Source: an uncultured archaeon
GTDB taxonomy: Archaea; Iainarchaeota; Iainarchaeia; Iainarchaeales; CSSED10-239
Length of the DNA: 64,000 bases
Direction: 5' to 3'
NCBI GenBank assembly: GCA_964586355.1
Contig: CAZPGO010000011.1
Coordinates: 6,634-70,633, forward strand
Positions 3,167 through 37,711 of the stretch are shown piece after piece. How positions within the stretch are numbered: the first letter of the stretch is position 1; each line of letters opens with the position of its first letter. The position numbers were made by a program, and so were the translations under genes. Under the pieces are notes generated by a model, which did not search any database, was not told the origin of the DNA, and was given only the letters and a program-made list of their open reading frames with translations.

Positions 3167-4015
3167 ATGAAAAAACAATCAGCAATACATGATAAAAGGT
3201 TTATACTAAATTTTATTATTTTATTTTTAGCTGTGCATATCTTAGGGCTTTTTGTTGCACACCACTATTCTTTATTAGATCTGCAATTATCTGTTTTTGG
3301 AGATCCTAATAGCATCTATAATGCTTTGTTTATTGTTGGCTATATTTTATTTTTAACTTTGATGATCTTGTTAATGAAAAAACTTTTTAAAAGCGGGAAA
3401 TATATCTATCTATTTGAATTTTTTGCTTTGTTTTTTGCTATGGGTCTTGTTTTTGAGATCTTTTTACCTTTTTTACATGCTTATTTTTTAGCAGGTATTT
3501 TATTATTTTTTAAAAATCTATTTGAATCTGAAAAAATAAAATTATGGTTTAATAATTTTGTGTTAGGGGTTTCTTTAGCAGGTGCTGGAACCCTCTTAGG
3601 GTTAGGGCTAGGTCTTGTTCCAATAATTGCTTTGTTATTTTTATTAGCAGTTTATGATATTGTTGCTGTATTTTACACCAAGCACATGGTTTCTTTAGCA
3701 AAACTAATAATTTCAAAAAAAGTTTCTTTAATATTTTTACTACCTTCAAAAAAAAGAGTGTATAGACTTGGTGGTGGCGATTTTGCTATCCCTTTAGCTG
3801 TTTCTGCTAGCTTGTTTAATATCTTAATTAGAAAATTTAGTTTAGTAACAACATTAATACCAATTTTTTTTGTGTGGGTTGCGGCAATTTCTGGTATGTT
3901 ATTAACTTTTTATATTTTAGATAAAAAAAAGATAAATGCTTTACCAGCACTACCTATTCAGGTTTTTTTAATGATATTAGTTATTGTTATTTCTTATTTT
4001 ATTTTACTATACTAA
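3167..4015 (+). CDS. presenilin / signal-peptide-peptidase-like intramembrane aspartyl protease (A22 family)
   Basis: Polytopic membrane protein with the YD motif (AVYDIVAVF), the GxGD motif (LGGGDFAIP) and a C-terminal PAL motif (NALPALP). Confidence 0.7.
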   Translation: MKKQSAIHDKRFILNFIILFLAVHILGLFVAHHYSLLDLQLSVFGDPNSIYNALFIVGYILFLTLMILLMKKLFKSGKYIYLFEFFALFFAMGLVFEIFLPFLHAYFLAGILLFFKNLFESEKIKLWFNNFVLGVSLAGAGTLLGLGLGLVPIIALLFLLAVYDIVAVFYTKHMVSLAKLIISKKVSLIFLLPSKKRVYRLGGGDFAIPLAVSASLFNILIRKFSLVTTLIPIFFVWVAAISGMLLTFYILDKKKINALPALPIQVFLMILVIVISYFILLY

Positions 4016-13318: not shown

Positions 13319-15367
13319 TTATTTACTAAGTTCTTCTTGTCTTAGTAAACTATTCCATTTATTATCAATATCTTCTTGAATAGATCTCAAAACCTCTTTA
13401 TTTTTTTCCTTTAATACTTCTTTAAACTTTGTTTGTGTTTTTAAAAATTCTTCAATAGATATTCTGTTTTTTGGTTTATAGTTAATAGTTAATTTTCCAT
13501 CCTCATATTCATAAAGAGGCCAGAAATTACTTTCTGTTGCAAGTTTACTGATAGCAATTGTTTGTGATGGATCTGCTTTCATATTTGTTGGACACGCAGC
13601 ATATGCAATTAGAACTGCTGGGCCTTTTTTTTCAAAGGCTTTTTTTGCTTTGTTATACATATCTATTTGGTTATAAGGATTTACTTGAGCAACATAAGGG
13701 ATATTGTGAGCAATTGCTATTTGGGTTAGATCTTTATTATACTCTATTTTACCATAAGAATTTACTCCAGATGGAGTTGTACTTGTTGATGCTCCTTTTG
13801 GTGTGGCTGATGATCTTTGATTCCCGGTATTATGAACTACAATTCCATCTGCAATAAAATTATGTTCTCCTTCAACTCTTAAATCAAAAGTTTTTTCTTT
13901 GCCAATTTCTTTAATGTTTTTTATAATTTCAGTATCAAAATTTTTATTTCCAATTAAAAAGTTTTGGTATTTATATTGAGTAGGATATTTTTCAATATTC
14001 CAAGGATATTTTTTACTAAAACATATGCTATAATATTTACTATCTTTTAATAACGGACGATAAACCACAAATGTGCCTTTTTCTCTTTTTTGAATTGTTA
14101 TTTTTCCAACTCTGTAATCTAATGTTTGTAATAATAATCTTAATCTTAAAATAAGTTCTTTACTTGCCGAAAGATATCTACAACTGTCTTTTTTTTTTTT
14201 TTTATAAATATACCCATCAGATAATAATAATCCTTCAATAAACGCTTCTTTTTGATCGTCAGGAATTGTATAGACCCAAGACGGAATTATTTTGTTTTTT
14301 GCACCGTGTTTAAATCCTAATGATTCAATAAATTTAGCAATATTTACTGAATATAGGTAAATATATATTTTATCTGTTTTTATTTGTTTTAATTTAAATA
14401 TTTTTTCACATGCTTTGATACATTTATCCCTACCAACTGTGCCTTCTGGTAATGCAAATCCAATTTCTCCTTTTTCTGTTCTAGACCAACCATCGCCAAT
14501 ATAAAGTCCTAAAAATAGCATTAAATCTTTGGTTGATTTTATAGGTATTTTAACATTATTTATACAATTAACTTTGTAATCTCCTTTTTTTACAAGTTTT
14601 ATTTTTTCAAAAGTAAAAGCTTTTTTCCCTTCTAATTTTTTTAAAGTAATAACTTGATCTCCTTTTTTTAATTCCGTAAGTGTTTTCCAAAATAATGTGT
14701 TTGGTTTGCCTCTAGGCTTTTTATCAACAATTAAAAAAGGATGATTTCCTGTTGCTTTAATATTGTGGTGAAATGTTTCAATTTCATACACTTTTTTAAC
14801 GCCATTATTAAAAACGCCACTACAGTTTTTAAGAACCAATTTATGAGTTTTTTGATCAAAAGCATAAACTTTTTCACCTACAATAATTTCTGAAACTTTT
14901 TTTAATCCATTTTCTGTATAAATTAATGAATCTTTGCTTAAACAATTCATATACCCTTCGTTTGTGTAACAAAGATAAACAAAATTATGTCCCCTCTCCA
15001 GAGCTCCAGACAATGCGGATAAGCCAATATCAAATGATCCGCCGTCTCCTGCAATTACCAAAAAATTTATGTCTTTTTTTATTTTCCCTTTTTTCTTTAA
15101 TGCCAAATAAGCCTTTTCCACTCCAGAAATTGTTGCAGCAGAATTTGCAAATGCAGAATGAATCCAAGGCATATTCCAAGAAGTTTGTGGGTAGATTGTT
15201 GTTGTTACTTCTGCACATGATGTTGCACTCGAAACAACAACAGGATCATCACTAGCACTAGCAACAGTTCTAGAGATTATTCCTATAGGGCACCCTGAGC
15301 AGGTTCTATGTCCTGACACCATCACATTTTTTTTTTCTATTCTTTCTGCAAGTTCTTTTATATTCAT
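13319..15367 (-). CDS. porB: pyruvate/2-oxoacid:ferredoxin oxidoreductase beta (TPP-binding) subunit, interrupted by an intein
   Basis: Exteins carry GHRTCSGC and the TPP motif GDGG...NEGYMN|TGNQRSSATP. The ORF is 682 aa, versus roughly 300 aa for typical PorB. Confidence 0.9.
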   Translation of the reverse strand: MNIKELAERIEKKNVMVSGHRTCSGCPIGIISRTVASASDDPVVVSSATSCAEVTTTIYPQTSWNMPWIHSAFANSAATISGVEKAYLALKKKGKIKKDINFLVIAGDGGSFDIGLSALSGALERGHNFVYLCYTNEGYMNCLSKDSLIYTENGLKKVSEIIVGEKVYAFDQKTHKLVLKNCSGVFNNGVKKVYEIETFHHNIKATGNHPFLIVDKKPRGKPNTLFWKTLTELKKGDQVITLKKLEGKKAFTFEKIKLVKKGDYKVNCINNVKIPIKSTKDLMLFLGLYIGDGWSRTEKGEIGFALPEGTVGRDKCIKACEKIFKLKQIKTDKIYIYLYSVNIAKFIESLGFKHGAKNKIIPSWVYTIPDDQKEAFIEGLLLSDGYIYKKKKKDSCRYLSASKELILRLRLLLQTLDYRVGKITIQKREKGTFVVYRPLLKDSKYYSICFSKKYPWNIEKYPTQYKYQNFLIGNKNFDTEIIKNIKEIGKEKTFDLRVEGEHNFIADGIVVHNTGNQRSSATPKGASTSTTPSGVNSYGKIEYNKDLTQIAIAHNIPYVAQVNPYNQIDMYNKAKKAFEKKGPAVLIAYAACPTNMKADPSQTIAISKLATESNFWPLYEYEDGKLTINYKPKNRISIEEFLKTQTKFKEVLKEKNKEVLRSIQEDIDNKWNSLLRQEELSK
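13829..14944 (-). mobile_element. intein with LAGLIDADG homing-endonuclease domain (residues 142-513 of PorB)
   Basis: Starts with Cys (CLSKDSLIY). Block B is ATGNHPF. LAGLIDADG motifs are LFLGLYIGDGW and FIEGLLLSDGYI. Block F is FDLRVEGEHNFIA. Ends VVHN, followed by Thr. Confidence 0.85.
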
Positions 15368-23192: not shown

Positions 23193-23291
23193 ATATATTT
23201 TATGGTTAGAAATCTTTTTTAAATGAAAACTTTTACACATATTTATTTTTAAATAACAATATAAACTTTTAGATCTTTTATATTTCTTATT

Positions 23292-24434
23292 ATGCTTAAT
23301 AAAAGATCTGTTTCCCCATTGATCGCAACAATTTTATTAGTTGTTCTCTCTGTTATATTGATCACTGTTGTTTTAACATGGGGGAAAGGTTTTTCAAAAG
23401 AGAAATTAGATCAAACAAAAATAAAAGATACAAGTTATATTGGTTTAATAACAGCAAAACAAGTTTCAGATAATGCTTTTTATTTAATAACAACAAAAAA
23501 CCTGCCATCTACTGAAATAATAGCATACAAAATTATTCCGTCATTAGAGCATCCTATCTTTTATTTACTTGAAGATAAGATCTATACTTTATCTGAATCA
23601 GTTAACTTAACACCAAACTCATCTACTCTTTTTACAATAGATTGTGCTCCAGAAAAAAAATATACTGTTGTTTTAATTACTAGTGATAATAAATATATTC
23701 CAATAGAAATAAACAGCAATCTTTCTTACACTTATCTTGGTTGTATTGAAAAAAGTTGTATGGCCTATAAAGAGAAATTTGTTAACTTGCCAGATGGTAA
23801 TTATCCAATACAAATAGATAGTTTTCTATTTGATGTTTATTGTGACATGACAACAGATGGTGGTGGTTGGGCAATTGTTGCAACAAATAAAAATAATAGT
23901 AATCCAAATCATTTATCTGCAGCAAGTAGAGAAGTTTTTATAAATAATAATTATTCTGTTATTCCAGAAATAAGTACAATAGATAATGTTACAAAAGAAG
24001 GATACATTGCTTTAAAATATTGGACAGATCTAGCAAAAACAAAAGAACTAAGATTTGTTGTTGGGCAAAACACTCTTAAACTTGGTGGTTGGGAGTTTAG
24101 ATCTGGACCAAGTTCTGATTGGTTACATTATTGGAATTATGCTGAATGTACTGGTCCTTATGCTGATAGTTGTTGGGCTGCTAGTGATAATTGTGGTTTT
24201 ACTTTTGACACACCCAGTGGAGAAAAAAACAGAGGCAGCATTTGCTATGGTTGGGCATATACAAGCAGCAACAACATATTTGCAAAAAAAAATTCTCCAA
24301 GATCTGGGTATTGGTTAGGTTGGTATTATAATGTGAGTAGATTTAATTTATTAGGAAATGCGCCAGACACATTGTCTCCAGAATGGATGGATGTTGCCGG
24401 TGCTGTTGGCGACGCTCATATTGCTGTAAGATAA
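23292..24434 (+). CDS. archaeal type IV pilin-like (class III signal peptide) protein with C-terminal fibrinogen-related domain
   Basis: N-terminus MLNKRS/VSPLIATILLVVLSVILITVVLTWG. C-terminal half has the FReD signature FDVYCDMTTDGGGWAIV. Confidence 0.7.
   Translation: MLNKRSVSPLIATILLVVLSVILITVVLTWGKGFSKEKLDQTKIKDTSYIGLITAKQVSDNAFYLITTKNLPSTEIIAYKIIPSLEHPIFYLLEDKIYTLSESVNLTPNSSTLFTIDCAPEKKYTVVLITSDNKYIPIEINSNLSYTYLGCIEKSCMAYKEKFVNLPDGNYPIQIDSFLFDVYCDMTTDGGGWAIVATNKNNSNPNHLSAASREVFINNNYSVIPEISTIDNVTKEGYIALKYWTDLAKTKELRFVVGQNTLKLGGWEFRSGPSSDWLHYWNYAECTGPYADSCWAASDNCGFTFDTPSGEKNRGSICYGWAYTSSNNIFAKKNSPRSGYWLGWYYNVSRFNLLGNAPDTLSPEWMDVAGAVGDAHIAVR
23307..23393 (+). repeat. pilin N-terminal module, copy 1 (paralogous to 36320..36406)
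   Basis: SVSPLIATILLVVLSVILITVVLTWGKGF versus SVSPLIATILLIVVSVIIVTIVLTWGKGF. Shared nucleotide strings include ccattgatcgcaac. Confidence 0.8.
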
Positions 24435-24521: not shown

Positions 24522-24592
24522 GCCTTGGTGGCAGACCGGTCATGCATTCGCCTGCAGAGCGAAAGAATGGGGTTCGACTCCCTACCAAGGCT
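24522..24592 (+). tRNA. tRNA-Cys (GCA)
   Basis: Hand-folded cloverleaf. Acceptor gccttgg/ccaaggc, anticodon stem ttcgc/gcgaa, loop cTGCAga, T-loop ttcgact. Confidence 0.85.
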
Positions 24593-28260: not shown

Positions 28261-28998
28261 ATGTGTGCTGCACTTGAAAATTTTATAAAAGATGCTTTTT
28301 GTAATTCTTTTACAGATTCTTCAGAAATTAGAAATCAAAAATATGAAGAGTGTTTTTCATATTTAGGAAATCAAAATAATCCACCAGATGTAATTATAAA
28401 AAACTGGGATGCAATTGAAATAAAAAAAATTGAAAGCAAAAATCTATCGGATTTAGCATTAAATAGTTCTTATCCCAAATCAAAATTATTTTCTGATTCT
28501 CCAATGATAACTTCAGAATGTAAAAATTGTGAAGAGTGGTTAAGTAAAGATGTTCTTTATGTTGTTGGAAATATAAAAGAAAATAAAATAGCCACATTGA
28601 TTTTTATATATGGAGATTGTTATGCTGCCGATAAAGAAATTTATGAAAGAATAAAATCCACAGTTATTGATAATATAAAATCTAAACTTGAATATTCTAA
28701 AACAAATGAACTGGGTAGAATTAACAGAGTGGATCCCTTGGGTATAACAAATTTAAGAATAAGAGGAGTGTGGACTATTCAACACCCATTAAAAGTTTAT
28801 AGTGATGTCTTAAAAATTATAGATACAAAATTTCAATTATTTGTATTAATGAAACAAGAAAAATATTTGTCATTTCCAAAAGATGATAGAAATAATATAG
28901 AGCGAGAAAAAAATATAATTTTAGAAAACATAAAAATTCCAAATCCAAATAACCCGGCTAAATTAATAGAATGTAAGATAATAAAGGTGGTAAAATGA
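28261..28998 (+). CDS. type II restriction endonuclease (NgoPII/HaeIII-partner-like), longest uninterrupted part
   Basis: Overlaps the downstream m5C methyltransferase by 4 nt. Segments PPDVIIKNWDAIEIKKIES and RINRVDPLGITNLRIRGVW look like a PD-(D/E)xK-type REase. The true start is probably ATG 28165, interrupted by TAA 28171. Confidence 0.6.
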   Translation: MCAALENFIKDAFCNSFTDSSEIRNQKYEECFSYLGNQNNPPDVIIKNWDAIEIKKIESKNLSDLALNSSYPKSKLFSDSPMITSECKNCEEWLSKDVLYVVGNIKENKIATLIFIYGDCYAADKEIYERIKSTVIDNIKSKLEYSKTNELGRINRVDPLGITNLRIRGVWTIQHPLKVYSDVLKIIDTKFQLFVLMKQEKYLSFPKDDRNNIEREKNIILENIKIPNPNNPAKLIECKIIKVVK

Positions 28999-29990
28999 AA
29001 ATCGCCTCTTTTTTTTCTGGTGCTGGGGGGTTAGATTTAGGATTTTCTAATGCTGGATTTAAATTAGTTTTTGCAAATGATAATTGGTCTGGATGTTGGG
29101 ATACTTTTGAGAGAAATCACAAACTAAAAATCTATAAAAAATCAATAACAGAAATTAAAGCTCACGAAATCCCGAATGTGATTGGCTTTATAGGTGGTCC
29201 ACCATGCCAAAGTTGGAGTTTGGCGGGAGCTATGCGTGGAATAGAAGATGATAGAGGTAAATTGTTTTACAATTATATTGAATTGATAAAAGAAAAAAAA
29301 CCAGCATTTTTTTTAGCAGAAAATGTAGCCGGTATATTGTCTGAAAAACAATATACAGAATTTAAAAAAATCATTTCTAAATTTAAAGAAATTGGATATA
29401 ATGTAGTATATAAATTAGTTAATGCAAAAGATTATGGTGTTCCACAAGATAGAGAGAGAGTGATAATTGTAGGTTATCATCACAAATTAAATAAAACTTT
29501 TGAATTCCCAGATCCGTTAAAATGTGATGTGACTTTAGAGAATACTATTAGTGATTTGCCACAACCCATTCCAGCAAAAGAAAAGAATTATGCAAATAAT
29601 AATTTAGAAATTCCAAATCACGAATATTTTATTGGTGATTTTTCTAAGATATATATGTCTAGAAATAGAGTGAGATCCTGGGGAGAAGTGTCACACACCA
29701 TTCAAGCAGGAGCCAGGCATACACCAATTCCTCCACAAGCCCCGAAGATGAGATTTGTATCTCAAAATGAAAGAGAATTTGTTAAAGGAAAAGAAAAACT
29801 ATATCGCAGATTATCTGTAAGAGAGTGTGCGAGAATACAAACATTTCCTGATAATTTTATGTTTTATTATAATAATGTTTCAGATGGATATAAACTGATT
29901 GGAAATGCTGTGCCAGTTAAACTAGCAGAAGTTATTGCAAATAAAATTAGAAGAGATCTAGATAAAAATTTGATTCAAGATCATTTCTAA
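28995..29990 (+). CDS. DNA (cytosine-5)-methyltransferase, M.HaeIII/M.NgoPII-like
   Basis: Motif I FFSGAGGLDLGF, IV GGPPCQSWS, VI ENV, VIII QDRERV, IX RRLSVRECARIQTFPD, X GNAVPV. Collinear with my recollection of M.HaeIII. Confidence 0.95.
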   Translation: MKIASFFSGAGGLDLGFSNAGFKLVFANDNWSGCWDTFERNHKLKIYKKSITEIKAHEIPNVIGFIGGPPCQSWSLAGAMRGIEDDRGKLFYNYIELIKEKKPAFFLAENVAGILSEKQYTEFKKIISKFKEIGYNVVYKLVNAKDYGVPQDRERVIIVGYHHKLNKTFEFPDPLKCDVTLENTISDLPQPIPAKEKNYANNNLEIPNHEYFIGDFSKIYMSRNRVRSWGEVSHTIQAGARHTPIPPQAPKMRFVSQNEREFVKGKEKLYRRLSVRECARIQTFPDNFMFYYNNVSDGYKLIGNAVPVKLAEVIANKIRRDLDKNLIQDHF

Positions 29991-32026: not shown

Positions 32027-33478
32027 TTGAAAAAAATAAATACTAAAAAAGCAACTAACAAACCAGTAGGTAAAAAAACCTCTGCAAAAGTTGCTTCTAA
32101 AAATAAAAAAACAATTAAAAAACCAGTAAATAAAGCGGTTGTTAAGAGTACTTCCAAACAAACAGCTGTTGTTAAAAAGCCAATAACTACAAAAAAAACA
32201 AAAAAGTTTAACAAAGATATACTTTTAATTATTCTACTTTCAGTAATTGTTCTTGGAATTATTGTTAGTGTTGTTTTAACAACTCCAAAGAATTTTGAAG
32301 ATTCAGATTTAAGTGATTATGATAATCTAATTGATGAAAATGCATTAGATGTTAATATTACCCCACAACAAGATCCAAAAGAGCAAAGACTTACAGAAAT
32401 TCAAGAAGAAGCACAAGAGCTTTCTTTACTAATGGCAAATGAAATCAAAGAATCACAATTAGAAGTTTTTGAAAATTGGTATGAAGAGTTAGATGTAAAT
32501 AAAGAAGAAATGGATTCTTGTTTAGAGAGAAATAATTACTTAAATCAAGACTTAGATTTTGAACAAGCAAAAATTTTAGATAAAATAGGAATGGATTTCT
32601 ATTTAGCTCAATCTACTGGTATATTAGGAACTCCTGCAACATTTATAAATAGTTTTTTCATATCTGGTTATCTTGACATTGATGAGTTTTCAGAGATCTA
32701 TGATGTTGCAGTTTCTGAAGAAATTCCTGATATAAATTTTGAATCAGAAAGTACTTTTACTATAGATGTAAATAAAGATCCAAAACTAAATATAATTTAT
32801 AATCAAAACTATGCAAAAACAGATCAAACCATAGAATTACTAAAACAAAATTCTGAAAATACTTTTTTTAAAGAATTATTTGATGAATTAGAATTAAATA
32901 AAATAGATTATAAAACAGAAGATGCTCAAGAGATACTAAAAAAAGCAGGAGCTACATTTTTGCCTTTATTCTATATCGAAGGAAATATAGAGGATTTAAA
33001 TATTTCAAAAAAAGAAGACTTTGACTCATTGTTCTATGAACTAGAAGAAGGATTCTATGTTTTAAATCCACAAACAACAGGCATAAGCCAAAATCTTTTA
33101 TACAAGGATTTTTTAGTTGAAGATGATTATATGATTGGAGACTCTAACCTTACAAATACAATAATGATCTTTACAGATTATAGTTGTGGATATTCAAAAA
33201 TGTTTGAGACACAGATGCTTCCACAAATATTAACAAACTATATTGACACCAACAAATCTAAGTTAATTATAAAAGATCTTCCATTAAATCAAGAAGTTTC
33301 CTTATTTCCAGCAATATTTGCTAGATGTGCTCAAGCACAAGGTAATTTTTTGGACACACATATGAAATTATTTGAAGAAAGTAATTCTTATACAACTTCA
33401 ATAATTGAGAGTATAAGAACCAAATATACTCCCCAATTAACTGCTTTAGAAGAGGAGTATAACAATTTATTAGAATAA
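32027..33478 (+). CDS. membrane-anchored DsbA-like thioredoxin-fold protein
   Basis: TTG start after AAGGTGG. Lys-rich N-terminus, one TM helix, GILGTPATFINSFFISGY (DsbA C-terminal half), then FTDYSCGYSKMF (CxxS active-site-like). Confidence 0.5.
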   Translation: MKKINTKKATNKPVGKKTSAKVASKNKKTIKKPVNKAVVKSTSKQTAVVKKPITTKKTKKFNKDILLIILLSVIVLGIIVSVVLTTPKNFEDSDLSDYDNLIDENALDVNITPQQDPKEQRLTEIQEEAQELSLLMANEIKESQLEVFENWYEELDVNKEEMDSCLERNNYLNQDLDFEQAKILDKIGMDFYLAQSTGILGTPATFINSFFISGYLDIDEFSEIYDVAVSEEIPDINFESESTFTIDVNKDPKLNIIYNQNYAKTDQTIELLKQNSENTFFKELFDELELNKIDYKTEDAQEILKKAGATFLPLFYIEGNIEDLNISKKEDFDSLFYELEEGFYVLNPQTTGISQNLLYKDFLVEDDYMIGDSNLTNTIMIFTDYSCGYSKMFETQMLPQILTNYIDTNKSKLIIKDLPLNQEVSLFPAIFARCAQAQGNFLDTHMKLFEESNSYTTSIIESIRTKYTPQLTALEEEYNNLLE

Positions 33479-36301: not shown

Positions 36302-36616
36302 GTGTTTTTAAGATATAAATCTGTATCTCCATTGATCGCAACGATTCTATTAATAGTTGTCTCTGTAATTATAGTTACTATTGTTTTAACCTGGGGCAAA
36401 GGTTTTGTAACAGATTCTTTTTCTCAAACAGATTCTTTTAGTATTCAAAAAAATCTTAAAAATCTAGAGTTTATTAAATTTAAAAATGGAATAAATGGAA
36501 GATTCTTTTTTGATTATTATCCACCCAAAAATAAAGATCTAAATTTTACTGTTGTTAGCTACGCTTATAATGATTATCCTTTAGTTCCATTAGAGCCAGA
36601 AAAAACCATTTCTTAA
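36302..36616 (+). CDS. type IV pilin-like N-terminal module (class III signal peptide), ends at in-frame TAA
   Basis: A GTG 36302 start gives MFLRYKS/VSPLIATILLIVVSVIIVTIVLTWGKGF, parallel to ORF 23292. The ORF track uses TTG 36284. Confidence 0.6.
   Translation: MFLRYKSVSPLIATILLIVVSVIIVTIVLTWGKGFVTDSFSQTDSFSIQKNLKNLEFIKFKNGINGRFFFDYYPPKNKDLNFTVVSYAYNDYPLVPLEPEKTIS
36320..36406 (+). repeat. pilin N-terminal module, copy 2 (paralogous to 23307..23393)
   Basis: 24 of 29 aa identical to copy 1, with conserved nucleotide strings. Confidence 0.8.
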
Positions 36617-36679
36617 ATTGGCACTTTTTATTTAGATCTTGGTGTTGTTGATACTGGCCCTTTTATTATTAATCTTGTT

Positions 36680-37711
36680 TTGTCTAATGGATCTTATTTA
36701 TCTTTTAAAAATATAACTAGTGTTAATAGATCTCCATCATCTAATGATTGCCCAGAAGGCTATATTCCAGTTCCAGGAAATTATCTTTATGACACTGTTG
36801 GTTCCAAGGGTGGTTTTTGTGTTCCAAAATATGAAATGAAATTAGATCGAAATAATGATGGTTTTGGTAATGTATCATCTGAATTTGGTTGTGAACTTTC
36901 GACCTTTAATGTCTGGAATTATAATTCTATAGATTGTAATACAGGCGATTTGGTTTCTTCAGCCAATGGTTCGCCAATTGTATTTTCTGGTTTAAATAAT
37001 GCAATTACTTCTTGTGAATCATTAGGAGAAAATCATCATTTAATGACTAATGATGAGTGGATGACACTTGTAAGAAATATAGAAATTATTCCTCAAAATT
37101 GGTATGATCCTGAAACAGATAGTTGGGGTGTTTCAGTAACAGATATTGGAAATGGAAATAAATTGCCACAAGGTCAAAAAACACTAAATCCTAATTTTTG
37201 TTTAGATGCATCTCAAGATGATGAAGACGGTTATTTTGGCATAAGCAATCCAAATAATAGTCATAGAAGAACTTTATACTTAACAAACGGAGAAGTTATT
37301 TGGGATCTATCCGGAAATATATTTGAATTTGTTGATTTGGTTATTAAAAAAAAAGATCTTCCAGATCTAGTTAATTATGATGGGACAGAATATAATAGTT
37401 CAGTTATGTTGGATGGAGATTATGCTTTAAACGGTGCTAATAAATATGCTAATTGGTTTGATTTAGGTAACACTACTTTATATTATAAAGATTTATATTT
37501 ATTGACAAATAACAATTATACTAGAGAAAATGGAAATGTTGGTTATTTATATACTCTTAGTAATAGAGCAAGTACAGATGAAACAGAAATTGTTTTTATT
37601 AGAGGGTGTCATTGGGCAGACACAACAAATTGTGGTATTTTAACCGTGCTTACAAATAGAACATATTCTGGAACTGATCCTGCTGGTGCTCGTTGTGTTT
37701 ATTACCCTTAG
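36680..37711 (+). CDS. FGE-sulfatase / C-type-lectin-fold domain protein (same frame as 36302..36616)
   Basis: CPEGYIPVPG...FCVPKYEM, HLMTNDEWMTLVRN, WDLSGNIFEFVD, IRGCHWAD and GARCVY follow the FGE/SUMF1-type pattern. Confidence 0.65.
   Translation: MSNGSYLSFKNITSVNRSPSSNDCPEGYIPVPGNYLYDTVGSKGGFCVPKYEMKLDRNNDGFGNVSSEFGCELSTFNVWNYNSIDCNTGDLVSSANGSPIVFSGLNNAITSCESLGENHHLMTNDEWMTLVRNIEIIPQNWYDPETDSWGVSVTDIGNGNKLPQGQKTLNPNFCLDASQDDEDGYFGISNPNNSHRRTLYLTNGEVIWDLSGNIFEFVDLVIKKKDLPDLVNYDGTEYNSSVMLDGDYALNGANKYANWFDLGNTTLYYKDLYLLTNNNYTRENGNVGYLYTLSNRASTDETEIVFIRGCHWADTTNCGILTVLTNRTYSGTDPAGARCVYYP

Follow-up and report, generated by a model that had tools for sequence, protein, structure and literature searches.

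A modular type IV pilin-like protein with a fibrinogen-related head in an uncultured archaeon

Bacterial type IV pilins can carry grafted binding modules: 264 architectures of such modular pilins have been catalogued (PMC8179133), and the Streptococcus sanguinis examples PilB (vWA) and PilC (concanavalin-A-like lectin) act as adhesins (PMC8179133, PMC9934059). In archaea of the DPANN type, LamG proteins are expanded and have been linked to type IV pilus loci, as in the Mia14 'ARMAN' genome (PMC5498576). The present study concerns a gene (23292..24434, plus strand) in a 64,000-nucleotide stretch of DNA from an uncultured archaeon (hereafter the window; contig CAZPGO010000011.1 of assembly GCA_964586355.1). 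We show that the encoded protein joins a carrier resembling archaeal pilins to a head that appears to belong to the fibrinogen-related domain (FReD) superfamily, and we favour, with reservations, the reading that the gene encodes a modular type-IV-pilin-type surface adhesin.

The gene, its pilin-type carrier and its family

The open reading frame (ORF) translates exactly as a first-pass annotation of the window had quoted it (MLNKRSVSPLIATILLVVLSVILITVVLTWG... and ...FDVYCDMTTDGGGWAIV...), and public copies together with an ortholog confirm its existence. The parts of the gene are delineated as follows.

23292..24434, plus strand: whole gene for the 380-residue modular pilin-like protein, stop codon included (from the ORF, its translation, the public copies and the ortholog)
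23292..23309, plus strand: putative class III signal peptide n-region MLNKRS, residues 1-6, with presumed cleavage after Ser6
23310..23384, plus strand: predicted hydrophobic N-terminal helix, residues 7-31 (VSPLIATILLVVLSVILITVVLTWG), equivalent to pilin alpha1-N (from profiles, AlphaFold2 and conservation)
23385..23741, plus strand: predicted pilin globular 'stalk', an Ig-like beta-sandwich, residues 32-150 (from AlphaFold2, Foldseek and family identity)
23745..24074, plus strand: FReD-homologous part of the head, residues 152-261, with the A subdomain (Cys156-Cys184, YCDMTTDGGGW) and the first part of the B subdomain
24075..24431, plus strand: C-terminal ~120 residues of the head, 262-380, rich in Trp, Tyr and Cys, at the position of the rest of B and the P subdomain in FReDs

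The identical protein (P0202) has been called on 7 public contigs from NCBI and JGI, where its record name is 'hypothetical protein', and the gene neighbours in the three public loci fetched for it are identical to those in the window. The '90% identity' cluster that holds the public copy is represented by P0002, whose head is only ~76% identical to that of the copy. An intact 380-residue ortholog stands in the syntenic position of another genome (GCA_030154545.1, locus L008), upstream of the same small gene, PPDK-like gene and RadA as in the window, and it is directly preceded there by a LamG-headed paralog (array at 36-2260). Window protein and ortholog are 75.5% identical overall, with 90% in the helix, 63% in the stalk and 80% in the head, and conservation of the head is comparable to that of housekeeping neighbours in the same pair of genomes (RadA 90%, PPDK-like gene 82%, ArgRS 77%). 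The ratio of nonsynonymous to synonymous substitution rates (dN/dS), computed by the Nei-Gojobori method for window gene and ortholog, is 0.22 overall, 0.156 for the head, 0.39 for the stalk, 0.147 for the N-terminal helix and 0.149 for residues 206-380. The gene is real and under purifying selection. Accelerated or diversifying evolution of the head was considered and set aside, since the stalk (63%, 0.39) is the less conserved of the two when compared to the head (80%, dN/dS 0.16). Nor does the GC content at third codon positions (GC3) support a recent horizontal acquisition of the head: it is 0.174 there, compared to a genome value of 0.144 +/- 0.020, and lies within the range of the window genes.

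In residues 1-31 the protein has the appearance of an archaeal class III (prepilin-type) signal followed by a hydrophobic helix. Lys4 at position -3, Arg5 at -2 and Ser6 at -1 precede a hydrophobic stretch of ~25 residues, and ~45 database proteins share the near-invariant start [KR]-S-x-S-P-L-I-A-T-I-L-L-I-V-V-S-V-I-L-I-T-V-V-L-T-W-G. Its first portion, the [KR]-S-[VIL]-S-P-L-I-A-T motif, is kept across all ~45 family members; in those inspected, Lys or Arg stands before the serine, and Ser at -1 is conserved in every one. When 25 members were aligned, 16 of the 20 nearly invariant columns fell within residues 6-34. AlphaFold2 (AF2), run on the full protein with a 25-row alignment, places a helix at residues 9-41, with a predicted local distance difference test score (pLDDT) of ~90 for residues 11-30. 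Because it is near-invariant across paralogs, the helix fits the alpha1 helix of a pilin in a filament core rather than a disposable Sec signal.

Residues 32-150 are predicted to fold as a pilin-type beta-sandwich, modelled by AF2 at residues 53-141 with pLDDT of 85-96. The top three matches of a Foldseek search against the PDB are all archaeal type IV pilins (8fk7, E 2.4e-5, probability 1.00; 8q30; 6w8u), the archaellin 9eq7 is also among the matches and the remainder are generic FN3/Ig sandwiches. The structural matches to pilins take in the helix. After the presumed cleavage the pilin module would span ~144 residues, compared to 136-141 for the complete archaeal pilin targets. A disulfide between the conserved Cys118 of the stalk and Cys151 of the junction is probably formed.

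The stalk is common to ~40 proteins that bear other heads (31-47% identity), and the collective comparison points to a lineage-specific family in which signal, helix and stalk are the same and the heads interchangeable. Most members carry a LamG head (PF13385), some an FGE-sulfatase head (PF03781), at least two types of head are unassigned, and a FReD is rare. The head is swapped among paralogs at a conserved Cys-containing junction, which in the window protein reads YLGC151IEKSC156. Metagenome-assembled genomes (MAGs) of the related 'Candidatus ainarchaeum' contain tandem arrays of up to six genes with differing heads (L001, 2593-12273; L002, 1543-9122), one of which flanks a PPDK/PEP-synthase gene; L003, L004 and the array in L008 are further related loci with modular pilin genes. 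Every family member found is modular, with at least 268 residues after the motif. A second member is present in the window itself (36302..37711, plus strand, 469 codons, GTG start, MFLRYKS/VSPLIATILL). With the FGE-sulfatase-headed group P0043-45 it shares 50% identity, and it is broken by one in-frame TAA at codon 105 (36614-36616), which may reflect a pseudogene, a sequencing error or read-through; the part downstream of the TAA has no Pfam match and no exact match in the contig index.

The fibrinogen-related head

The first-pass annotation had placed a FReD from about residue 151, and profile searches, which it had suggested as a check, bear this out for the front part of the head. The NCBIfam model NF040941 ('fibrinogen-like YCDxxxxGGGW') matches residues 155-196 with E 5.8e-13 and 48.6 bits (cut-off 30); Pfam Fibrinogen_C (PF00147) only narrowly exceeds its cut-off of 22, with 22.5 bits, and over no more than 33 residues (170-202) that cover 35 of the 221 profile positions. 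Sequence matches in the PDB are best to XEEL, intelectin-1 and tenascin and are confined to residues ~152-206. Comparison of profiles extends the homology further: hhalign aligns a profile of the three orthologs to 11 classical prokaryotic FReDs at 99% probability (E 2.9e-18) over head residues 8-117, and BLASTP finds 28% identity over 170 residues to a Bdellovibrio FReD-like unit, reaching head residue 163. In an alignment of 49 FReD-like units related to the head (A3), C12, C40 and G46-48 (head numbering) are invariant; the A3 profile matches FReD crystal structures with E ~1e-23, and Pfam Fibrinogen_C is matched by 45 of the 49 members. The Trp- and Cys-rich segments noticed from the sequence are real, the 236-residue head containing 10 Trp, 7 Cys and 16 Tyr.

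Structure prediction agrees in part. The head falls below pLDDT 50 in the AF2 model of the full protein; a second run on the head with the 49-sequence alignment gave pLDDT 56 and a predicted template modelling score (pTM) of 0.64, with confident modelling of the A subdomain and the terminal strand (pLDDT 80). Foldseek returned only FReDs or intelectins among the top 50 matches of this model (best E 6.4e-5), but the template modelling scores (TM-scores) are only 0.3-0.4 and were obtained with a low-confidence model.

Based on these data, the head is best understood as a FReD-superfamily domain for which the assignment is secure in the scaffold half, that is A and part of B (~152-261), the portion over which the claim of a FReD stands. 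The C-terminal half appears as orphan sequence at the place where FReDs bind ligand, yet it is under selection. Several results on this half weigh against the adhesin reading. Its modelled structure is of low confidence (pLDDT mostly <50), its ~120-125 residues have no significant match in the PDB, and none of 426 prokaryotic FReD-like units matched its ~120 residues significantly (best 9.9 bits); the detectable sequence relatives of residues 262-380 are the three orthologs only. The FReD Ca2+ motif DxDxD is not recognisable in the head, the sole candidate Asp being Gly in the ortholog. The second disulfide of the P subdomain (NC...WW..C) and the ligand pocket are not recognisable in it either, and the intelectin-specific C-terminal region with its Ca2+-coordinated diol-binding site was not found, the C-terminal half matching nothing. 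An apparent P-domain remnant ('FTFDTPSGE...SICYGWAY') came from an anchor-driven alignment only, with the Asp replaced by Gly in the ortholog, and is taken as unproven. A local jackhmmer extension of the FReD to ~200 of the 236 head positions was likewise treated as unproven because the C-terminal half, searched alone, matched nothing. Since the P-subdomain region is unrecognisable, the carbohydrate- and acetyl-group specificity of animal FReDs, which the first-pass annotation had named for such domains, is not transferable to the head.

FReDs had also been described there as best known from animals, a view that needs widening, for the domain is not exotic for prokaryotes. FReD-like domains are abundant in bacteria, and an exhaustive profile search returned 744 representative clusters at E<=1e-3; nearly all of these match the first ~55 head residues only, and many are giant multi-repeat proteins. 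The longest-matching relatives are Bdellovibrio 'fibrinogen-like YCDxxxxGGGW domain-containing proteins' and proteins of Myxococcota. FReD-like units of these predatory bacteria (Bdellovibrio bacteriovorus, Myxococcota; P0087, P0097, P0185, P0188, P0106, P0192) occur 2-4 or more in tandem per protein, and a search of the papers considered here yielded nothing apparently addressing them. The combination with a pilin stalk is very rare. A scan of GTDB genomes with the single protein found no relative, and the same scan with the alignment found one species-representative genome only, bearing other heads. Searched with the head alignment, JGI metagenome contigs gave 80 FReD loci and no ortholog, the best match being 32% identical over the A/B region.

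Filament display, binding and alternative explanations

Based on the architecture, the homology of both modules, the family structure, orthology, synteny and purifying selection documented above, a modular pilin-type surface adhesin is the reading we favour. That the signal is cleaved, that the protein enters a filament, which class of ligand it binds and that it takes part in host contact are inferred. The precursor would be inserted via Sec, and MLNKRS would be removed by a prepilin peptidase of the PibD/FlaK type (A24) encoded elsewhere in the genome. The hydrophobic helix, from Val7, would anchor the protein in the membrane and could let the ~144-residue pilin module join a filament resembling a type IV pilus, or some other surface assembly that depends on class III signals, from which the 230-residue FReD head would project outward as a binding module. 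As its ligand, a glycan or some other component on the surface of a second cell or of a substrate is most likely. Lectin-like heads borne on such stalks probably serve to grip other cells or sugars. The architecture read by the first-pass annotation is in this way supported, and its functional gloss of host-cell surface recognition is plausible for an archaeon whose episymbiotic lifestyle we assume.

The orphan half of the head apart, several observations on the carrier and its surroundings weigh against display on a filament. Archaeal prepilin peptidase substrates usually have Gly or Ala at -1, and Ser6 at this position is small but non-canonical. In Methanococcus voltae, substitutions of the -1 Gly impaired cleavage (PMC10117864). 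The matches of residues 3-37 to Pfam Pilin_N (PF07790; 18.0 bits, cut-off 25.2) and to TIGR02537 (18.1 bits, cut-off 20) are below threshold and can be called suggestive. The prepilin-type N-terminus proposed from the sequence is supported by its layout, the pilin-like fold behind it and the near-invariant helix, with residue -1 and the profile scores as qualifications. Within its 64 kb the window has no gene for an A24 peptidase, a FlaI/PilB-type ATPase or a FlaJ/PilC-type platform protein; pilus machinery genes are equally missing from ~21 kb surrounding the L001 arrays, and none were found in the other related loci examined, so that the search for a prepilin peptidase and a pilus ATPase, recommended by the first-pass annotation for the genome at large, came back empty for these regions. 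The sole intramembrane aspartyl protease in the window, a seven-transmembrane protein (3167..4015, plus strand) that matches the presenilin/signal-peptide-peptidase family PF06550 (E 1.3e-16), was considered as prepilin peptidase and rejected, being of the presenilin type and not A24. Finally, family proteins and related loci yielded no short 'major pilin' in which the stalk alone follows this N-terminus.

From these same observations arises the main rival, possible though in our judgement doubtful, that the protein is a membrane-anchored or bindosome-like surface lectin with no extended filament, the class III N-terminus, cleaved or not, serving to tether stalk and head. A family in which all members found are modular and no plain shaft subunit was seen, an unusual position -1 and loci in which pilus machinery does not adjoin the genes all accord with a tethered lectin, and class III signals in archaea are also found on non-pilins such as sugar-binding and other substrate-binding proteins (PMC2910488). 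Against it, stalk size and helix-plus-sandwich fold are those of complete archaeal pilins, a common filament core in which the paralogs co-assemble would predict just such an extremely conserved helix, and pilins in archaea are often encoded apart from their machinery (PMC4858521). Highly improbable by comparison is an ordinary Sec signal with signal peptidase I (SPase I) cleavage after ...LTWG (Gly31), releasing a soluble secreted lectin. Counted from Lys32, position -3 is Thr and position -1 is Gly, which would satisfy the small-residue rule of SPase I; the hydrophobic stretch of ~25 residues, however, has the length of a transmembrane or alpha1 segment and exceeds a Sec h-region, near-invariance across ~45 divergent proteins (dN/dS 0.147) is rare for signal peptides, the N-terminal profiles of pilins and archaellins match, though below cut-off, and the structural matches to pilins include the helix. 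Neither of the findings that the first-pass annotation had named as telling against it, absence of a FReD match and an ordinary Sec signal with no prepilin site, was made.

As regards the head, it is unlikely, if conceivable, that it is not a lectin at all and that the A/B scaffold of the FReD was kept while a re-invented C-terminal half binds protein or has a structural or oligomerising role. The P-subdomain region without similarity to any FReD and the Ca2+ site that is not conserved would fit such a change, and the animal FReDs of tenascin, angiopoietin and fibrinogen also bind proteins, according to PDB titles. The sister heads in the family, however, are lectin-type folds (LamG, FGE-sulfatase/C-type-lectin-like), the A region finds its best sequence matches in intelectin and XEEL, which bind glycans, and aromatic-rich surfaces, for which the head offers 10 Trp and 16 Tyr, are typical of sugar-binding sites. 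An artefact, whether a chance ORF or a chimeric assembly that fuses the gene of an archaeal pilin with that of a bacterial FReD, might be suspected from the rarity of the combination, with FReD heads on this stalk in only two 90% clusters among 5.8 billion and a pilin-type N-terminus in 0 of the 85 FReD ORFs of the 80 metagenome loci. We give it practically no credence: chance ORF, chimeric assembly and recent transfer are rejected because the identical gene occurs in 7 independently assembled contigs, with identical neighbours in the three loci fetched, an intact 380-residue syntenic ortholog exists in another genome, dN/dS is 0.22 and GC3 of the head matches the genome.

A more far-reaching extension of the adhesin reading, speculative and rather improbable as we see it, is that these archaea make filaments or a pilin-anchored coat with no plain shaft pilin, built entirely of modular lectin-headed subunits as a combinatorial 'lectin brush' determining the range of partner cells to which the archaeon can attach, and that the FReD head and the FReD-like repeats found in predatory bacteria (Bdellovibrio, Myxococcota) go back to a common ancestor. 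If this were true, it would suggest a common prokaryotic tool of cell-surface capture, older and broader than the immune lectins of animals.

Genomic setting and comparison with known systems

Genes for MCM (with an archaeal winged helix), RadA, LonB, PheRS, a HerA-like helicase and six tRNAs lie in the window, a low-GC (27.6%) segment of an archaeal chromosome. The named relatives nearest to the protein family come from MAGs labelled 'Candidatus ainarchaeum sp.', which we take to be Candidatus Iainarchaeum (Iainarchaeota), of the small-genome DPANN type. Upstream of the gene lies a putative promoter, proposed from inspection of the sequence.

23246..23266, no strand assigned: AT-rich divergent intergenic region with the TATA-like elements tttttaaata and aatataaac, 26-46 nt upstream of the ATG

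On the other side, tRNA-Cys(GCA) (24522..24592, plus strand) is placed 87 nt downstream of the stop codon; there is no sign of an integrated element near it, because gene order is conserved in the related genome. A Thioredoxin_4/DsbA-like protein (32027..33478, plus strand) has an N-terminal membrane anchor and the single-Cys motif SCGYS, and its identity to the syntenic ortholog is only 56%, compared to 90% for RadA. It could be an oxidoreductase for Cys-rich surface proteins, and its presence in the window fits extracellular disulfide formation in the 8-Cys protein studied here. Between RadA and an Fe-hydrogenase-like gene, an NgoPII-type restriction endonuclease and a C5 cytosine methylase are encoded (28261..29990, plus strand), and the matching slot in L008 (5987-6551) holds a MazE/PemK toxin-antitoxin pair; the place is therefore seen as a small variable defence slot. 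A gene of the pyruvate:ferredoxin oxidoreductase beta type (TPP_enzyme_C; 13319..15367, minus strand) contains an intein with a LAGLIDADG endonuclease, according to precomputed Pfam matches at the identical locus L005.

Our study bears on how DPANN archaea recognise partner cells and hold on to them; their candidate adhesins are mostly annotated 'hypothetical' or 'LamG domain'. The locus presents one highly conserved pilin carrier with exchangeable binding heads, a fibrinogen-type domain among them, and thereby gives a set of candidate recognition modules that lend themselves to expression, the boundary of the head lying at residue ~151.

Compared to the animal FReD lectins and intelectins (ficolins, tachylectin 5A, FIBCD1, tenascin Fg, intelectin-1/XEEL), the head has the disulfide of the A subdomain and the YCDM..GGGW signature in common, but unlike them it is without a recognisable P subdomain, Ca2+ site, acetyl-binding pocket or collagen/coiled-coil oligomerisation region. 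The bacterial proteins described by NF040941 (Bdellovibrio bacteriovorus, Myxococcota) are similar in that the head matches the same model and that each finishes with a hydrophobic strand and then an Arg. They differ in having multiple repeats and Sec-type signals, whereas in the window protein just one unit sits on an archaeal pilin module, and the final ~120 residues bear no sequence relation to theirs. With this protein the prokaryotic FReD-like domains gain an archaeal example borne on a pilin. With the archaeal pilins 8fk7 (Pyrobaculum calidifontis), 6w8u (P. arsenaticum) and 8q30 (Sulfolobus acidocaldarius AAP) it shares the succession of helix and beta-sandwich within ~140 residues. These pilins stop after the sandwich, whereas the window protein adds a head of 230 residues; sequence identity is 11-15%, and the orientation of helix to domain differs in the model (root mean square deviation ~10 A). 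The LamG proteins of Mia14 (PMC5498576) resemble the protein in their DPANN host and proposed role in cell contact, and LamG heads are carried by its direct paralogs; unlike in Mia14, the head here is FReD-like and the genes are not beside pilus machinery. No description of a shared pilin module with head swapping was found in the part of the Mia14 report considered here.

The protein can be seen as an archaeal equivalent of the modular pilins of bacteria. In both, a pilin module with a class III signal is followed by a short linker and a C-terminal binding module, and many alternative modules occur on the same kind of carrier; for the bacterial binding modules, a role in adhesion upon display by the filament has been proposed or shown. 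The hallmarks of a modular pilin, namely a complete pilin module, a short linker and a non-pilin module, are found in the window protein as residues 1-150, the junction and the FReD from ~152. Unlike in the bacterial proteins, its pilin module is archaeal, with a Pilin_N/archaellin-type N-terminus and a beta-sandwich and no N-methyl-Phe/Glu5 motif, and unlike in PilB and PilC the grafted module is FReD-like. The protein, already public yet unannotated, is kin to the known modular pilins and to the lectin-type surface proteins of DPANN archaea, and with it the 'modular pilin' principle is extended from bacteria to archaea.

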